Shown: positions 43,991 to 53,590 of the stretch, piece after piece
Layout of the letters: every line of letters starts with the position of its first letter
Position numbering within the stretch: position 1 is the stretch's first letter
Assembly (NCBI GenBank): GCA_019058245.1
Contig: JAHPZJ010000017.1
Coordinates: forward strand, 43,134 to 107,133
Direction: 5' to 3'
DNA: 64,000 bases
From: Promethearchaeota archaeon
GTDB lineage: Archaea > Asgardarchaeota > Lokiarchaeia > Sigyniarchaeales > SOKP01
Program-made: the position numbers and the translations under genes
Notes under the pieces: model-generated
Seen by the model: only the letters and a program-made list of their open reading frames with translations
What the model was told of the DNA's origin: nothing
Databases searched by the model: none

Positions 43991-44551
43991 ATGTCAAAAG
44001 TAAAAACAACTAAAAAAAGAGGTGGAGTTGTACACCAATTCATAGTTGTTGATCCTGACTTATGCACAGGTTGCGAAACTTGCGAATCTGTTTGTTCATT
44101 TGTCCATGATGGAGAATTTAATCCTATAAATACAAGAATTCATAGAGTTCGGATTGAACCAATCTTAAATGTCGCATTAGCATGCCAAAAGTGTGACGAT
44201 GCACCATGTGTTCGAAGTTGTCCTGAAAAAGCCTTAGAACAAGATAAAGAAACAGGTTCAATTATAGTAGATGACGATAAATGTAATGGGTGTGCTTTTT
44301 GTATTCGTGCCTGTGATTTTGGTGTATTAAGTTTACATATTCAATCCCAAAAAGCTTTAATTTGTGACCTCTGTGAAACCATGAAGGATGATTTTATAGA
44401 TCCTGAACGGGGTGAAAAATATCCTGCTTGTATTGATGTTTGCCCAAAAGAAGCTATCTCATTAAAAGATGTTGAACAAATAGGGGAAGAAAAGCGTATT
44501 GATGCTGTAAAGAGGTTATTTCGGGAGATAATAGAGGAAACTAAGGCGTAA
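43991..44551 (+). CDS. 4Fe-4S dicluster electron-transfer subunit (AorB/DmsB-like)
   Basis: CTGCETCESVC, CQKCDDAPCVRSCP, CNGCAFCIRAC, CDLC..PACIDVCP. Abuts aor. Confidence 0.9.
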   Translation: MSKVKTTKKRGGVVHQFIVVDPDLCTGCETCESVCSFVHDGEFNPINTRIHRVRIEPILNVALACQKCDDAPCVRSCPEKALEQDKETGSIIVDDDKCNGCAFCIRACDFGVLSLHIQSQKALICDLCETMKDDFIDPERGEKYPACIDVCPKEAISLKDVEQIGEEKRIDAVKRLFREIIEETKA

Positions 44552-44677
44552 AGCAAATTTTTTTTAATATCCTTTATTTTTTATTCTAATTTTTTAAATT
44601 ACTATTAAACACTAATTCATATTATATTTTTATACTTGTTATGAAAGGTTATATCTTTCTCAACATAGGTAATTATT

Positions 44678-45145
44678 ATGTACTCCATAAGAAAAGCTAA
44701 TTTTGATGATATAGATAAACTGATAGAATTACGTATTGAATTTTTAAAAGAGATTCAAGATTCTCTGAACAATATGGAAATGAAAATATTCCAAAAATCT
44801 CTTAGAGATTTTTTTCTTGAGAAAATGAAATCTAATGAATATATATCTTGGTTGGCTGAAAATGAGAATAAAATAATAGCGACAAGTGGTTTATCTTTTT
44901 TACAAAGACCTCCTTATTTTCTAAATATAACCGGAAAATTTGCTTACATTATGAATATGTATACTAAACCTACATGGCGTAGAAAAGGAATTGGCTCAGC
45001 ATTACTCGAGAAATTAATTAAAGAAATTAAAAGAAAAGGAATACAATTGGTAGTTTTACATGCAACACCCTCTGGTATAAAATTATATGAAAAATATGGT
45101 TTTAGAGGAAGTGATAGTGATAAAGAAATGATATTAAAATTATAA
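44678..45145 (+). CDS. GNAT family N-acetyltransferase
   Basis: YTKPTWRRKGIGSAL, LYEKYGF. Confidence 0.9.
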   Translation: MYSIRKANFDDIDKLIELRIEFLKEIQDSLNNMEMKIFQKSLRDFFLEKMKSNEYISWLAENENKIIATSGLSFLQRPPYFLNITGKFAYIMNMYTKPTWRRKGIGSALLEKLIKEIKRKGIQLVVLHATPSGIKLYEKYGFRGSDSDKEMILKL

Positions 45146-45452
45146 TTTAGCATACTGATTTTTAAATTCATAAAATATGATGAGGTATGATATTACTTAC
45201 TATGTTTTTTCATTAAACTTCCTTGTCTATTAATTTTTAAGAGGAAAATTGATCGAAATTGATAGATTTTTATGAAAAAATATGCGGAATTGTTAATTTT
45301 GTAATTAAAATATTAATGATGTTCGTTTGTTTTTTTCTTTTAAGTCTTTAAGGTAAGAGAATTATTGTCAACTCTGTAAAGATTAATGATAGTGAAATTA
45401 CAAGATATAATAATTTAATTTTAATAATATAGACTATTTACTTTATCATTAG

Positions 45453-45491
45453 TATTTCTGGGATTAGGATAAAATACTAATCCAAGAAATA
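45453..45491 (+). promoter_or_regulatory. Inverted repeat/hairpin upstream of hdrA
   Basis: tatttctgggattag-gataaaata-ctaatccaagaaata: 14 of 15 bp paired, 9-nt loop, about 50 nt before the hdrA ATG. Confidence 0.5.
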
Positions 45492-45538
45492 ATCGATCTG
45501 TAAAAGTTAGGAGGTTAGACTAACTAAAGGTGAGAAAT

Positions 45539-47515
45539 ATGTCTGATAAACAGACCAATGAAAAAAATAACGAAGATCAACCAAGAATAGGTGTGTTTGT
45601 ATGCCATTGAGGTATCAATATCGCAGGAATCTTAGACATACCAAAGATAGTCGAAGAAATAAATAAATTAGATAATGTTTGGGCTTATCCATATTTATCA
45701 TTATGTACTGAAGGTGGTTCCACCGAGATCAAAGAAAAACATGAAGAAATTAAATTTAATAGAGTTTTGGTCGCTGCTTGCACTCCAAAAACACATCAAC
45801 CTGTTTTCCATGCAATATTGACAGAGATGGGTTTACCTCCAAGATACTTGGAATTTGTAAACATTCGAGAACATTGTTCTTTTGTACATCAAGCTCCAGA
45901 AGTACGTGAAAAAGCTACTCTAAAAGCTATTGAATTAATTAGAGCTGGGATTGCCAGAGCAAAATTATTAGAAGATGTCCCAACAAAAACCGTACCAGTA
46001 GAACCAGCAGCTTTAGTAGTAGGTGGAGGAATTGCTGGTTTGTCTGCTGCTATAGATTTAGGTGATGTGGGATATAAAGTCTATTTAGTTGAAAAGAATA
46101 CAACTATAGGAGGACGTATGTCCCAACTTGATAGAACTTTCCCTACAGATGATTGTTCTATATGAATATTGGGACCAAAAATGCTTGAAGCTAACCGTCA
46201 TCCAAATATAGAAATCTTATCTTACAGTGAAGTAGATAAAATTGATGGATATATTGGGAATTTCGAAGTTAAAGTAAGAAAGAAGGCTCGATTTGTTCTT
46301 GAGGATAAATGTACAGGTTGTGGTACTTGTACAGATGTATGCCCCGTTTACATAAGTAATTACTTTGATGAGCATCTTTCAGCAAGAAAGGTTATCGATA
46401 TTGCATTTGCACAAGCAGTTCCCGCAATATCACAACTTGATAGAGCAGCATGTATCGAATGTTTTGCATGTGTAGATGCTTGCGAACAATCAGCTATAGA
46501 TTTTAGCCAGCAAGATGAAATCGTAGAACTTAAAATTGGCACGATAATAGTTGCCACTGGTTGGGATCTTTACCAAGGAGATGACTATGGATATGGTATT
46601 TATGACAATGTAATTAATCAAATAGAATTAGAGAGGATTCTTGCTCCAAATGGTCCAACTTATGGTCATTTAAAGCGCCCTTCTGATGGTAAACGTCCTT
46701 CAAAAGTGCTCTTTATTAATTGTGTTGGATCAAGAGATATCAATAAAAATGCTCATTGTAGTGTAATTTGTTGTAATCTCTCTCTAAAAAATTCTAAACT
46801 TATCAAATCAGAATATCCAGATTCACAAATTGTTTGCGTATACATAGATATGAGATGCGCTGGTAAAGACTATGAAGAATACTATAGAAGATCTCGGGAT
46901 GCGGGAATTATTTTTGTTAAAGGATTAGTGGGAAAAATTGAAGAAGATCCGCTAACAAAAAACCTTAAAGTACAGTTTGAGCCAGTTGGAACAGATTCTG
47001 TTGTTTCTATGGAATTCCATATGGTGGTATTGTCGTCTGCTTCACTTCCATCTAAAGGTACAGTTGAAATTGCTAAAGTATTAAATATGGAAAAAAGTCC
47101 TGACGGATTTTTAAAAGAATATCATGCGCGCCTTGATCCTATTAGTACAAAAGTACCTGGAATATATATCTGTGGCTCTGCTCAAGGTCAGAAAGAGATT
47201 GATAAAGCAGTAAGTCAAGCTCGAGGAGCAGCATCCGTAGCAGGTATTCCAATGAGTAAAGGAGAATATACTATGGAATTAATTCGAGCCACTCCATCAG
47301 ATGAAAGATGTGCAAAATGCTATAAATGCATAGAGGCTTGTCCATATAGTGCAATCTCTGTGAATGAACAAGGAAATATTGTTGTTAACCTGATCAATTG
47401 TCGAGGATGTGGAACTTGTGCATCTTTATGTCCTTCGAAAGCTATTGAGCTAAGGTACTTTAGAGATGATCAATATATGGCAATAATAGATGAATTATTA
47501 CCAATAGAGGAATAA
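45539..47515 (+). CDS. hdrA: Heterodisulfide reductase subunit A, selenoprotein (Sec24, Sec209), 658 aa
   Basis: ATG 45539 with AGGTGA SD. In-frame TGA 45608-45610 in RIGVFVCH-U-GINIA (normally CHCG) and TGA 46163-46165 in FPTDDCSI-U-ILGPKM (normally DCxxC). Track ORFs 45767 and 46169 are both in this frame. Confidence 0.93.
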
Positions 47516-47528
47516 AGAGGTAAAGAAA

Positions 47529-47987
47529 ATGGCAGAAACAAATGATATTAAAATAATTGTTTATGCTTGTTGGAAATGAGGATATGGTTCAGCGGATATG
47601 GCAGGTACTATTCGAGCTCAGTATCCAGATTCGATTCGAAATATATTGGTACCTTGCTCTGGACGTGTAGGACCAGATCTGATAATGCGAGCATTAGGAA
47701 GAGGTGCAGATGGCGTAGTTATTAATGCTTGATATCCTGGTGAATGCGATTATGAGACAGGAAATTACCATGCATATAGACAAGTAGAATACATTAAAGA
47801 AATTTTAAAAATCGTTGGCATGAGTCCAAATAGGTTAAAAATAATCTATTGTACCGCTGCTGAAGGTCAGAAATTTCAAAATGAAGCTATTGAAATGGAT
47901 AAAACTATCCGTAAATTAGGGCCAAGTCCTCTACGTACGAAAAGCACACCTAAAAAAGAAAAAGCTAAAGCAAAAGCTAAAGCTTAA
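47529..47987 (+). CDS. mvhD: MvhD/VhuD 2Fe-2S subunit, selenoprotein (Sec17, Sec68), 152 aa
   Basis: MAETNDIKIIVYACWK-U-GYGSADMAG..YP..VPCSGRV..GADGVVINA-U-YPGECDY..GN..AAEG..LGPSPLR. TGA at 47577-47579 and 47730-47732, TAA at 47985-47987. Absent from the ORF track. Confidence 0.93.
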
Positions 47988-47993
47988 AAAATA

Positions 47994-48067
47994 ATGTGTT
48001 TACTAATGAAACTGGGTTAAAAAAAATGAGAACTCAGTTGAAGAAATGGGTGCACCATATAACACAT
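47994..48067 (+). ncRNA. Eukaryote-like SECIS element (3' UTR of hdrA-mvhD)
   Basis: Lower stem ATGTGTT(47994-48000)/AACACAT(48061-48067); AUGA core at 48006-48009; 9-bp upper stem AACTGGGTT/AACTCAGTT; A-rich apical loop AAAAAAAATGAG; 3' GA at 48040-48041. Confidence 0.85.
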
Positions 48068-48174
48068 AAAAATATTATAAATAAATTAAAACTAAAAATT
48101 TAAAATTAATATCAAAAATTTTGGGAAATTTAAGAAAAAATAATCATATAGTATAAAGTTAGAGTTGGAAATAC

Positions 48175-49314
48175 ATGGATGCAATTGCAGAATATTTAAT
48201 AAAGATAGAAGATTTCTCTAAAATCTTGACAGCTTTATTAAAAGAAAAAGCAGTGGATAAAATAATCGGAGCTGAATTGAGAGTTGATAAAAAATCTGGA
48301 AATATTGATAGATTTACCGTTCAACCAAAATTAGTAGAAAAAGAAGAAGATCTAAAAGATTTTCCATTAACTCCTTTAATTGCATTTGGATATGCAAGAA
48401 CGGATTCTGCTTCAAAATTTTTGCATAAATCCGTTGCAGGTGCAATGAATGAAAAAATAGGGCTTATCGCACGACCGTGTGACACTAGAGCCTTAATAGA
48501 ACTTGCAAAAATAAAACAAGTAAACCTCGATAATCTTTTTATAATTGGTCTTGAAGATAGAGGTATGCTTCCTAAAGCAGGAAGAGAAATGAGAGCAATT
48601 AAGGATGTTGATCCAACTAAAATTGTAAAAGAAAAGGTTGGAGATAACGGTCTAATTGTGAAAATGGAAGATGGAAGTACAAAAGAATTTAATCTTTCGG
48701 TTGCCGAGAATTGTCTGAGATGTTATCGTAAAATCCCTACAATCGCTGATTTGACGGTTAGTGATCTTGGAATTCCAATAGATTCAGATGAGATTATCTT
48801 GAAAGTATATTCCGAAAAAGGTAGTGAAATTTTAGATAAATCAGGAATTAAAACTAAACAACTTCCAGATAAAGAGAAAAAGGCTCATTTAGATAAATAT
48901 AACGAAATTATTGAAAAAGCAAAAGAAAAACGAGCAAAAGATTTAGAAGAATGGAGTAAAATTCCTCAAAAAGAAAAGATAGCAGAACTTCTTAAATGCA
49001 CTATGTGTAATACTTGCATAAGAGGGTGCCCTGTTTGCTATTGTGTGGACTGTATTTTACAGAAAAAGAGGAAAGATAAGAATATTGATAAAGCTACTTA
49101 CCAATTAACACGAATAGCGCATGTTGCTGATAGATGCGTAGAATGTGGAAACTGCGATAATAATTGTCCTCAAAATCTGCCATTATCTCTCTATTTTCAG
49201 TCATTAAATGATACTTTTAAAGAAAAATTTAGTCATGAAGCAGGGATGTCTGTTAATGATATTCCATTTCGATCTGGAAAAGCAATTTCCCAGATGGAAT
49301 TAGAGAAAACATAA
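48175..49314 (+). CDS. Coenzyme F420 hydrogenase/formate dehydrogenase beta subunit-like (FrhB/FdhB) protein
   Basis: IGLIARPCDTRALIEL, ENCLRC, ADL, C-terminal CTMCNTCIRGCPVCYC and H..DRCVECGNCDNNCP typical of FdhB. Confidence 0.85.
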   Translation: MDAIAEYLIKIEDFSKILTALLKEKAVDKIIGAELRVDKKSGNIDRFTVQPKLVEKEEDLKDFPLTPLIAFGYARTDSASKFLHKSVAGAMNEKIGLIARPCDTRALIELAKIKQVNLDNLFIIGLEDRGMLPKAGREMRAIKDVDPTKIVKEKVGDNGLIVKMEDGSTKEFNLSVAENCLRCYRKIPTIADLTVSDLGIPIDSDEIILKVYSEKGSEILDKSGIKTKQLPDKEKKAHLDKYNEIIEKAKEKRAKDLEEWSKIPQKEKIAELLKCTMCNTCIRGCPVCYCVDCILQKKRKDKNIDKATYQLTRIAHVADRCVECGNCDNNCPQNLPLSLYFQSLNDTFKEKFSHEAGMSVNDIPFRSGKAISQMELEKT

Positions 49315-49520
49315 ACTATATTTTTTTAATTCTTTATTTTATAATTTTATTAAAATAATAAAGATCTTTTTTAGAGAAATAATTCCTTTTTCGTAAAAAG
49401 ATATGTATAAATAGTGGATTTTTTTTCTCTTTTACAAGAAAAAATTTTCGTATTTAAGAGAATTTGCCCAAAAGTAATTAAAAAGATAAAAAAAATTCCT
49501 GTGTATTTAAAACTAAAAAT

Positions 49521-51712: not shown

Positions 51713-53590
51713 TTAAGAATTTTCAATCTTTTTTTTTAGTAATCTCACTGTAAAAGTAGCGCCTTTATTTCTTCCCTCAGATTCGACATAAATTTGTCCA
51801 CCATGTAACTCTACTATTTCTTTTGATATATATAAACCGAGCCCAGATCCTTCAATATCTACACCTAAATCCATTCCATGTCTCTCTATTTTTCCAAATT
51901 TTTCAAATAATTTCTCCTTTTCTTTCTCGGTTATTCCCACTCCTGAGTCTTTTATTCGAACATCAATATAATCAGCTTTTTCAACAAGATAAATAAAAAT
52001 TTCACCCTCTATCGGATTGTTATTAATTGCGTTTGAAATAATATTTATAAGAACTTGTCTGAACCTAAGTCTATCTATATCGGCATAGATTTCATTTGGA
52101 ATCTCGAGTTTTAACTTCAGTTGACGATTAGTGGCTAAGTATTTCATATCATTTATACAATCAACTAAAAGTTCTGACAAATTTTCTTTTTGAAATTTTA
52201 AATTTAGTTTTTTAGATTCCAATCTTGAAGCATCTAATAAATTATCAATTAGATGTTTTAAACGAAGAGAACCACGATGTCCTATTTCAAGATATTTTTG
52301 TGCTTCTATTCCAATTTCATGCAGGTAAAATTTATTTAGGATTTGATAAGCACCATATATTGATGTCATTGGAGTTTTTAATTCATGAGACAATCGTATT
52401 ATCAGATCTTTCCTAAGTTCATGAAGTTCTAACAATCTTTTGTTTTCTTCAATAATTATCTGCTCGGCTTCTTTTTCATCAGTAATATCTTTGGCTAATA
52501 CTAAATCTGCAGGTTTACCATCAAAAATAATAGTTTTTGAAAAAAGATCTACCCACATAACTTCTCCATTTTTTTTAAGAGCACGATACTTATAATTACT
52601 TATTGCATTTATATATCCTTCCTGTTTTTTCCTAGCTTGTTCCATAACAAACGCTCTATCATCAGGATGAATTCCTTTTATAAATTCATCAGGACCCCAA
52701 TTTCTTATTTCCTCCGCAGAAAATCCTGTACTTCTGGGTAATTCTTCGTTAAAATATTTTATTGTTCCATCTTGAATAACAAATATGCTCATTAATGACT
52801 GTTCAGTAATAACTCTAAATCTTTCCTCTGATTCTTTTATCTTTTGAATTGTTATTTTACGCTTAGTAATGTCTCGTATAAAAACTAAAACCTGATCTTC
52901 AGAAAAATATAAATGTCGAGCTTCAAAATAACGAGTTGAACCCTTAATTTGAAGATCAAAATCTACTGTTAATGGTTCATGTGTTTCTAATGTTTTACTT
53001 ATGCTTTTTGTACTAAGATCAATTATATGTTTTGGGAAACTGTTTCTGATATTCTTACCAACAAAGGTTTCTAATGGAAAATTGAAATCCTCAATATTCC
53101 CTCTATAGTCTAAGATGGTGCCATCCTTAGAAACTAAGAAAAATAAATCTGGTATACTCTCAAATATTCTTCGAGACTTATGCGCTGATTCCACTATCTG
53201 TTGTTCTACTTCTTTATAAGTTGATACATCATGACCAATCCCAAGTGTTGCATAATAATTACCTTCTTTTTTTAATGGAATCGTTTTCACTTCAATATAA
53301 ATTATCGTACCATTTTTTTTTCTTACTTTGTATGTTTTGGGTATTTTAACAGCTCCAGTTTTCCTTTCCTTTTTAAGTTCATCAGAAATAATAGAGGGTA
53401 CTTCCTCAAACAATAAATCGGTAATCTTCATTCCATATAGTTCTTTTTTAGAATATGCAAATTTTCGAATAAAAACATCATTAGCATCAAGGATATTCCC
53501 ATTTTTATCGTGAAGATATATATGATCGTAGGAATTCTCAAATATTTCCTTAAGATAATTAGTATATCCTTGAACTATACTCCTCATCAA
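51713..53590 (-). CDS. Three-PAS sensor histidine kinase (canonical HisKA)
   Basis: SHELKTPMT H-box, NIISNA, DSGVGI, GSGLGL. Confidence 0.93.
   Translation of the reverse strand: MMRSIVQGYTNYLKEIFENSYDHIYLHDKNGNILDANDVFIRKFAYSKKELYGMKITDLLFEEVPSIISDELKKERKTGAVKIPKTYKVRKKNGTIIYIEVKTIPLKKEGNYYATLGIGHDVSTYKEVEQQIVESAHKSRRIFESIPDLFFLVSKDGTILDYRGNIEDFNFPLETFVGKNIRNSFPKHIIDLSTKSISKTLETHEPLTVDFDLQIKGSTRYFEARHLYFSEDQVLVFIRDITKRKITIQKIKESEERFRVITEQSLMSIFVIQDGTIKYFNEELPRSTGFSAEEIRNWGPDEFIKGIHPDDRAFVMEQARKKQEGYINAISNYKYRALKKNGEVMWVDLFSKTIIFDGKPADLVLAKDITDEKEAEQIIIEENKRLLELHELRKDLIIRLSHELKTPMTSIYGAYQILNKFYLHEIGIEAQKYLEIGHRGSLRLKHLIDNLLDASRLESKKLNLKFQKENLSELLVDCINDMKYLATNRQLKLKLEIPNEIYADIDRLRFRQVLINIISNAINNNPIEGEIFIYLVEKADYIDVRIKDSGVGITEKEKEKLFEKFGKIERHGMDLGVDIEGSGLGLYISKEIVELHGGQIYVESEGRNKGATFTVRLLKKKIENS

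Follow-up and report, generated by a model that had tools for sequence, protein, structure and literature searches.

We analysed a 64,000-nt stretch of DNA (the window) from the Promethearchaeota archaeon metagenome-assembled genome (MAG) GCA_019058245.1 (contig JAHPZJ010000017.1, positions 43,134-107,133 of the forward strand), focusing on two adjacent genes, hdrA and vhuD, which contain two in-frame UGA codons each and are followed by a single selenocysteine insertion sequence (SECIS) element (Table 1). The window is AT-rich (27-34% GC along its length), and the whole assembly has 29% GC over 3.09 Mb in 31 contigs, with a completeness of 76%. The product of hdrA, for which GTG at 45530 is an alternative start, carries Fer4 and FAD/NAD-binding domains (Pfam), and its residues 14-654 align over the full length of solved HdrA chains (9sfi_A, E = 2.4e-205), while VhuD matches solved MvhD/VhuD chains at E = 1e-33. 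An earlier, sequence-only reading of this DNA had placed 13 nt between the hdrA stop and the start of the second gene (there called mvhD), leaving no room for a 3' element specific to hdrA, had assigned TAA stops to both genes, and had put the first and last UGA about 2.4 kb and about 280 nt away from a downstream fold. All of these values hold: the spacer occupies 47516-47528, the TAA stops are found at 47515 and 47987, and the two distances, taken to the AUGA core of the element, are 2398 and 276 nt.

A search with one genome per species retrieved 31 related Asgard loci, from records labelled Promethearchaeota, Promethearchaeia, Hermod-, Hod- or Thorarchaeota, or uncultured archaeon, whose VhuD proteins are 66-91% identical to that of the window. 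The same search returned MvhD homologues on two Desulfobacteraceae MAG contigs (L031, L032), which are 37-38% identical to the window VhuD. In every Asgard locus with enough upstream sequence (30/30), hdrA lies directly 5' of vhuD, the spacer measuring 12-17 nt and including an AGAGGT motif that is conserved in nearly all orthologues.

All four TGA triplets are retained in each of 30 aligned sequences (29 related loci and the window), and the two hdrA sites are never occupied by TGT or TGC. When the proteins are compared with solved structures, the first UGA (U27 in the structure alignment) pairs with the second cysteine of the N-terminal C-x-C-G motif of HdrA, the second (U212) aligns, within DDCxxX, with the residue written X in 9sfi_A, and both U17 and U68 of VhuD, which are about 50 codons apart in the FlpD domain, stand opposite cysteines of MvhD. 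At two further cysteine columns some orthologues swap TGT/TGC for TGA, the usual interchange of selenocysteine (Sec) and cysteine. Synonymous diversity across the 30 sequences is flat along both genes (mean about 0.42-0.43) and dips at gene starts and ends only, indicating that the reading frames are under selection beyond each UGA. These are genuine Sec/Cys positions, at which all four UGA codons very probably specify selenocysteine.

Table 1. Features of the hdrA-vhuD locus (window coordinates)
Feature	Position	Strand	Remarks
Nearly invariant AT-rich block (TAATAATTTAATTTTAATAATATAGACTATTTAC...TATCAT)	45408-45451	+	Compared across 28 orthologous loci
Leader hairpin, 7 + 7 bp in the window	45453-45491	+	Minimum free energy (MFE) -15.0 vs -6.4 +/- 2.3 for shuffles
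hdrA, heterodisulfide-reductase subunit A-like flavo-iron-sulfur protein, 658 aa	45539-47515	+	ATG start, stop TAA
Start-proximal 5-bp hairpin GUCUG-AUAAA-CAGAC, from the second hdrA codon	45541-45555	+	Nucleotides invariant in 28 orthologues
UGA 1, hdrA residue 24 counted from ATG 45539	45608-45610	+	2398 nt upstream of SECIS core
UGA 2, hdrA, canonical HdrA Sec position (~200), DDCSIU	46163-46165	+	1843 nt upstream of SECIS core
Intercistronic spacer, 13 nt, AGAGGTAAAGAAA	47516-47528	+	Shine-Dalgarno-like GAGGT, no T-run
vhuD/mvhD (FlpD family), 152 aa	47529-47987	+	Pfam PF02662, E 1.6e-41; stop TAA
UGA 3, VhuD residue 17	47577-47579	+	429 nt upstream of SECIS core
UGA 4, VhuD residue 68	47730-47732	+	276 nt upstream of SECIS core
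Complete SECIS, three-helix junction	47994-48067	+	R1 65.4 bits, MFE fold, covariation
SECIS lower helix, 7 bp	47994-48000/48061-48067	+	MFE fold
SECIS AUGA core	48006-48009	+	Starts 19 nt past the vhuD stop
SECIS helix II, 9 perfect bp	48010-48018/48031-48039	+	Covariation
SECIS apical loop, 12 nt, A-rich, AAAAAAAAUGAG	48019-48030	+	Opens with a run of A
SECIS GA	48040-48041	+	Kink-turn core with AUGA
SECIS side hairpin, 4 bp	48046-48049/48055-48058	+	3' arm
frhB/fdhB-like iron-sulfur gene, no UGA	48175-49314	+	Pfam PF04432; constant downstream neighbour

A single conserved SECIS element downstream of vhuD

In order to locate SECIS elements, we used a covariance model (R1) built from 29 orthologous elements and four other elements of the same genome, the window's own copy being excluded. 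When the entire 64 kb was scanned without filters, R1 matched 48002-48045 at 65.4 bits (E = 6e-14), whereas its next-best match, on the other strand at 52445-52483, reaches 17.2 bits; the sequence-only reading, according to which the only SECIS-like fold lies after mvhD, agrees with this single match above 17.2 bits. Each of the 31 related loci likewise contains one strong match, always past vhuD and scoring 54-68 bits, although 29 of these 31 elements are themselves training rows of R1, so that their scores are partly a matter of construction.

The structure of the core is supported by covariation. All nine pairs of helix II have changed on both sides in an alignment of 33 elements, with 98.7% of the cells paired, and neither any of 500 shuffles nor any slid register came near these values. 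The AUGA columns are invariant in the 33 elements, as are three A columns of the apical loop and the A of the GA dinucleotide, the G being nearly so. Variation among orthologues is minor in the apical loop, which is 11, 12 or 13 nt long depending on the length of the A-run. The SECIS stretch of about 75-80 nt is the most conserved and the most structured part of the locus, with a mean column identity of 0.89-0.90 vs about 0.8 in the coding regions.

Several orthologues depart from this consensus in detail. A one-base bulge (U or C) is present on the 3' strand of helix II in eight of them (L014, L016, L018, L019, L021, L024, L026 and L033), and the same eight display a compensatory change from A-U to G-C below the bulge. 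In one further locus (L020) the core reads AUGA_AA instead of AUGA_GA, a variant that has been reported in Asgard archaea (PMC11227280).

R1 together with a pattern scan identified seven such elements, known as lokiSECIS (PMC4989117), in the assembly, namely that of the window and six others behind UGA-containing genes. Three of the seven adopt the three-helix layout as their MFE fold; for the remaining four, its lower-helix and side-hairpin arms were read from complementary sequence. The sequences of the lower helix and of the side hairpin differ among the seven elements, and the side-hairpin loops contain UGC or GCA (GUGCA, UGCGA, UUGCU, UUGC, UGCA, CGCAA). Since both helices hardly vary among the orthologues of the window element, these orthologues alone are uninformative about either of them. 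We tentatively raise the idea, which we consider rather doubtful, that the shared SECIS is a conserved three-helix junction whose side arm docks a still unknown archaeal SECIS-binding factor, perhaps enabling action across cistrons over 2.4 kb; SBP2 has been reported to be absent in Loki (PMC4989117), and Asgard archaea in general are not known to possess it. The main text of the 2016 study of lokiSECIS (PMC4989117) makes no mention of the lower helix or of the 3' side hairpin, and the side arm is not described in PMC11227280 either.

Searches for a second recoding signal were negative throughout. With filters off, no R1 match on the + strand of 45146-47990 reached an E-value of 10, and an Rfam scan of 44500-49500 at E <= 10 returned nothing meaningful and no SECIS family, the eukaryotic RF00031 included. 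Relaxed kink-turn patterns (AUGA/NUGA...GA and [AG]UGA...[GA]A, with stems of 7-12 bp and loops of 8-40 nt) are conserved at 48006 only; matches at 45906 and 46149 occur in 6-7 of 28 orthologues and were rejected as chance-like. A scan of the + strand of 45146-48174 for the GAA_A fold of Methanococcus type (a long stem, an asymmetric bulge and a 3-bp second stem) gave 0 matches, the mean in shuffled sequences being 0.25. With respect to a signal of bacterial type, sliding consensus folding of 28 sequences, aligned with MAFFT under fast settings, disclosed no conserved fold beyond background 3' of any of the four UGA codons; windows were ranked by their energies because a null variance close to zero made z-scores unusable. 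Besides the SECIS, consensus folding displays a self-complementary Lys/Ala-repeat region at the 3' end of vhuD and small hairpins at the start of hdrA. A long-range stem candidate at 47601-47657 was rejected, with one double-sided change in one of the 28 sequences. The covariance-model scan that the sequence-only reading had proposed, coding regions included, was thus extended with Rfam, pattern, synonymous-site and fold scans, none of which detected a second SECIS in hdrA, vhuD or the leader. Given these negative searches and a 13-nt spacer that is too small for an RNA element, the downstream SECIS is the only candidate for all four UGA codons.

Probable recoding across the cistron boundary

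As observed, the locus comprises the two genes, four conserved UGA codons at Cys/Sec positions, a single conserved SECIS and no other detectable signal. We consider it highly likely that hdrA and vhuD are translated from a single mRNA on which this one 3' SECIS recodes all four UGA codons of the two cistrons. According to this model, transcription would start from a promoter near 45408-45451, and the resulting hdrA-vhuD mRNA would carry, past the vhuD stop, a single eukaryote-like lokiSECIS with its AUGA/GA kink-turn core, 9-bp helix and A-rich loop. Acting at a distance, together with a Sec elongation factor of the archaeal/eukaryal type and Sec-tRNA, the element would recode the two vhuD codons that lie 276 and 429 nt upstream of its core and, reaching over the cistron boundary, the two hdrA codons at 1843 and 2398 nt, leading to insertion of selenocysteine. 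Long-range, eukaryote-style action of this kind had been put forward by the sequence-only reading, and our comparisons lend it support as a predicted mechanism; as the same reading is found in Mariotti et al. 2016 (PMC4989117) and Huang et al. 2024 (PMC11227280), the interpretation is supported rather than novel.

Genes for SepSecS (371 bits) and for an EFSec-like factor (236 bits, 486-aa frame) are located about 5 kb apart on contig C14 of the assembly. TGA terminates 14% of the long open reading frames (ORFs) and is therefore an ordinary stop codon there, implying a standard code with no genome-wide reassignment.

Four points weigh against the single-mRNA model. No tRNA-Sec was found above threshold in this 76%-complete MAG, the sub-threshold matches being tRNA-Gly and tRNA-Ser according to ARAGORN. 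Every sequencing run that contains this DNA is a DNA metagenome from sediment or soil, and none is an RNA run. To our knowledge, no organism has yet yielded experimental proof that a SECIS acts across cistrons. Finally, the 5' end of the unit has two structures, namely the leader hairpin (45453-45491), which is conserved in structure, and a 5-bp hairpin immediately past the hdrA start codon.

These two structures deserve consideration, as the hdrA UGA codons could depend on an unrecognised element of their own in the leader or coding region (e.g. 45453-45491 or 45541-45555), with the 3' SECIS serving vhuD only. The leader is preceded by the nearly invariant AT-rich block, 5' of which the sequences of the 28 loci are unalignable and the upstream genes differ between loci; this block, which occurs once in the genome, is probably the promoter (B recognition element, BRE, and TATA box) and transcription start region of the unit. 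At the position of the leader hairpin, most orthologues fold a hairpin of different sequence, which counts in favour of this alternative. The start-proximal hairpin is invariant as GUCUG-AnAAA-CAGAC, and synonymous diversity over the first ~17 hdrA codon windows falls to 0.10-0.27, vs the mean of about 0.42-0.43. In a genome this AT-rich, CAG and ACC, both kept here, are expected to be less common than their synonymous codons. A precedent for a 5' location is provided by Methanocaldococcus jannaschii, in which the fdhA SECIS sits in the 5' untranslated region (PMC4989117). However, neither hairpin possesses an AUGA/GA core, an A-rich loop or a GAA_A bulge; the leader hairpin is not matched by R1, is not SECIS-like, and is absent from at least two orthologues (L005, L012). 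In addition, no conserved fold follows either hdrA UGA, and the second hdrA-vhuD pair of the genome has four UGA codons in hdrA despite a different leader that lacks these features, the start-proximal hairpin included. A separate signal for hdrA is consequently unlikely in our opinion.

A further alternative is that hdrA and vhuD are carried by separate transcripts, with the SECIS either working in trans on the hdrA mRNA or having no effect on it. Although an internal promoter in the AT-rich 3' end of hdrA is conceivable from the sequence, the 13-nt spacer has no T-run terminator and is too short for a promoter, a Shine-Dalgarno-like motif is conserved within it, and the gene order and spacing are invariant in 30 loci. 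Moreover, an hdrA mRNA that terminated ahead of vhuD would lack a SECIS altogether, and 30/30 sequences nonetheless keep both hdrA UGA codons; separate transcription is very improbable in this light. The notion that the hdrA UGA codons do not encode selenocysteine, either in a truncated gene or pseudogene or through reading as Cys or Trp by near-cognate suppression, could draw on the failure to detect a tRNA-Sec above threshold in an incomplete MAG, but is scarcely credible in view of the full-length frame under purifying selection in 30 orthologues, the strict retention of TGA at both hdrA sites, the Sec/Cys interchange at two other columns, the presence of SepSecS and the EFSec-like factor, and the canonical HdrA Sec position of the second site.

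Known systems, other elements of the genome and flanking features

The arrangement in which hdrA and vhuD share a SECIS is already known, having been published in 2016 and 2024. Mariotti et al. 2016 proposed that the Lokiarchaeota HdrA-VhuD tandem shares one lokiSECIS on a polycistronic mRNA, that up to six UGA codons spread over about 2 kb can be served by the shared element, and that UGA is never the stop of HdrA (PMC4989117). Huang et al. 2024 described one type I eSECIS-like structure shared by hdrA/frhD in hundreds of Asgard MAGs (PMC11227280), and a 2026 review holds no further experiment on the shared SECIS (PMC13188914). The window locus resembles the published lokiSECIS loci in its gene order, very short spacer, multi-Sec HdrA and two-Sec VhuD, as well as in its one AUGA...GA element, which has a 9-bp stem and an A-run loop and lies just after vhuD, and in the non-UGA stop of hdrA. 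It differs from them in its 12-nt loop (11 nt is stated in PMC4989117) and in having 2 + 2 UGA codons, whereas the published maximum is six; in addition, an frhB-like gene always follows here. The hdrA stop is TAA or TAG, never UGA, in 30/30 orthologues, which fits the published argument but is weak evidence, because among long ORFs just 14% use TGA as their stop and because the loci are related to one another.

Likeness to the eukaryotic SECIS (RF00031; type I) extends to the AUGA/GA quartet, the unpaired A residues of the apical loop, the proposed action from the 3' side over a long distance, and the use of one element for several UGA codons as in SelenoP. Conversely, the window element has no Rfam match at E 10, its helix II is shorter (9 bp), it possesses an extra side hairpin, and it would reside on a prokaryotic, polycistronic mRNA. 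The hdrA-vhuD-vhuG-vhuA-vhuU operon of Methanococcales encodes the same two selenoproteins in the same order, and the two Sec residues of its VhuD are served by one 3' element; however, hdrA has its own SECIS there (Mariotti et al., PMC4989117), and the GAA_A fold type is absent from our locus. As for distance, the 3' SECIS of Methanococcus maripaludis is functional at 520-679 nt, with no strict distance limit (PMC9622424). Reprogramming of stop codons in two separate cistrons by one 3' RNA element, at distances of as much as 2.4 kb, would be unique to Asgard archaea, and the shared Asgard SECIS bears on the origin of the eukaryotic selenocysteine system. To the published cases the window adds a well-documented, strongly conserved example with 30 orthologues and clear covariation, in which the probable promoter, the leader and the spacer are defined.

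Among the six other lokiSECIS of the assembly, one follows the second hdrA-vhuD pair (contig C13:36153-38600; L034:1154-3600), which has four UGA codons in hdrA and two in vhuD and corresponds to the six-UGA form described in 2016. Its spacer is a few nt long, and the UGA stop codon of its vhuD lies inside the AUGA core of the SECIS. Five other small UGA-containing ORFs each have a lokiSECIS of their own (C10:58252-60570, L035; C13:146130-146440, L036; C27:41605-42433). Two of them are paralogues with adjacent UU, and the remaining three encode small proteins of membrane type; the three ORFs of this group of five that were tested gave no Pfam match.

Downstream of the window SECIS, the frhB/fdhB-like gene starts about 170-200 nt past the vhuD stop in 30/30 orthologous loci with enough flanking sequence. 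Since this gene is always 3' of the SECIS, the element may be intercistronic rather than terminal, and the frhB-like gene is possibly co-transcribed with hdrA-vhuD. Just past the lower helix of the SECIS, many orthologues, but not the window, contain a GTTTT run, a possible terminator. A moderately conserved ATTTGGGAAATTTAAG block (48117-48140 in the window), which precedes the ATG of the frhB-like gene by 35-55 nt, could be that gene's own promoter.

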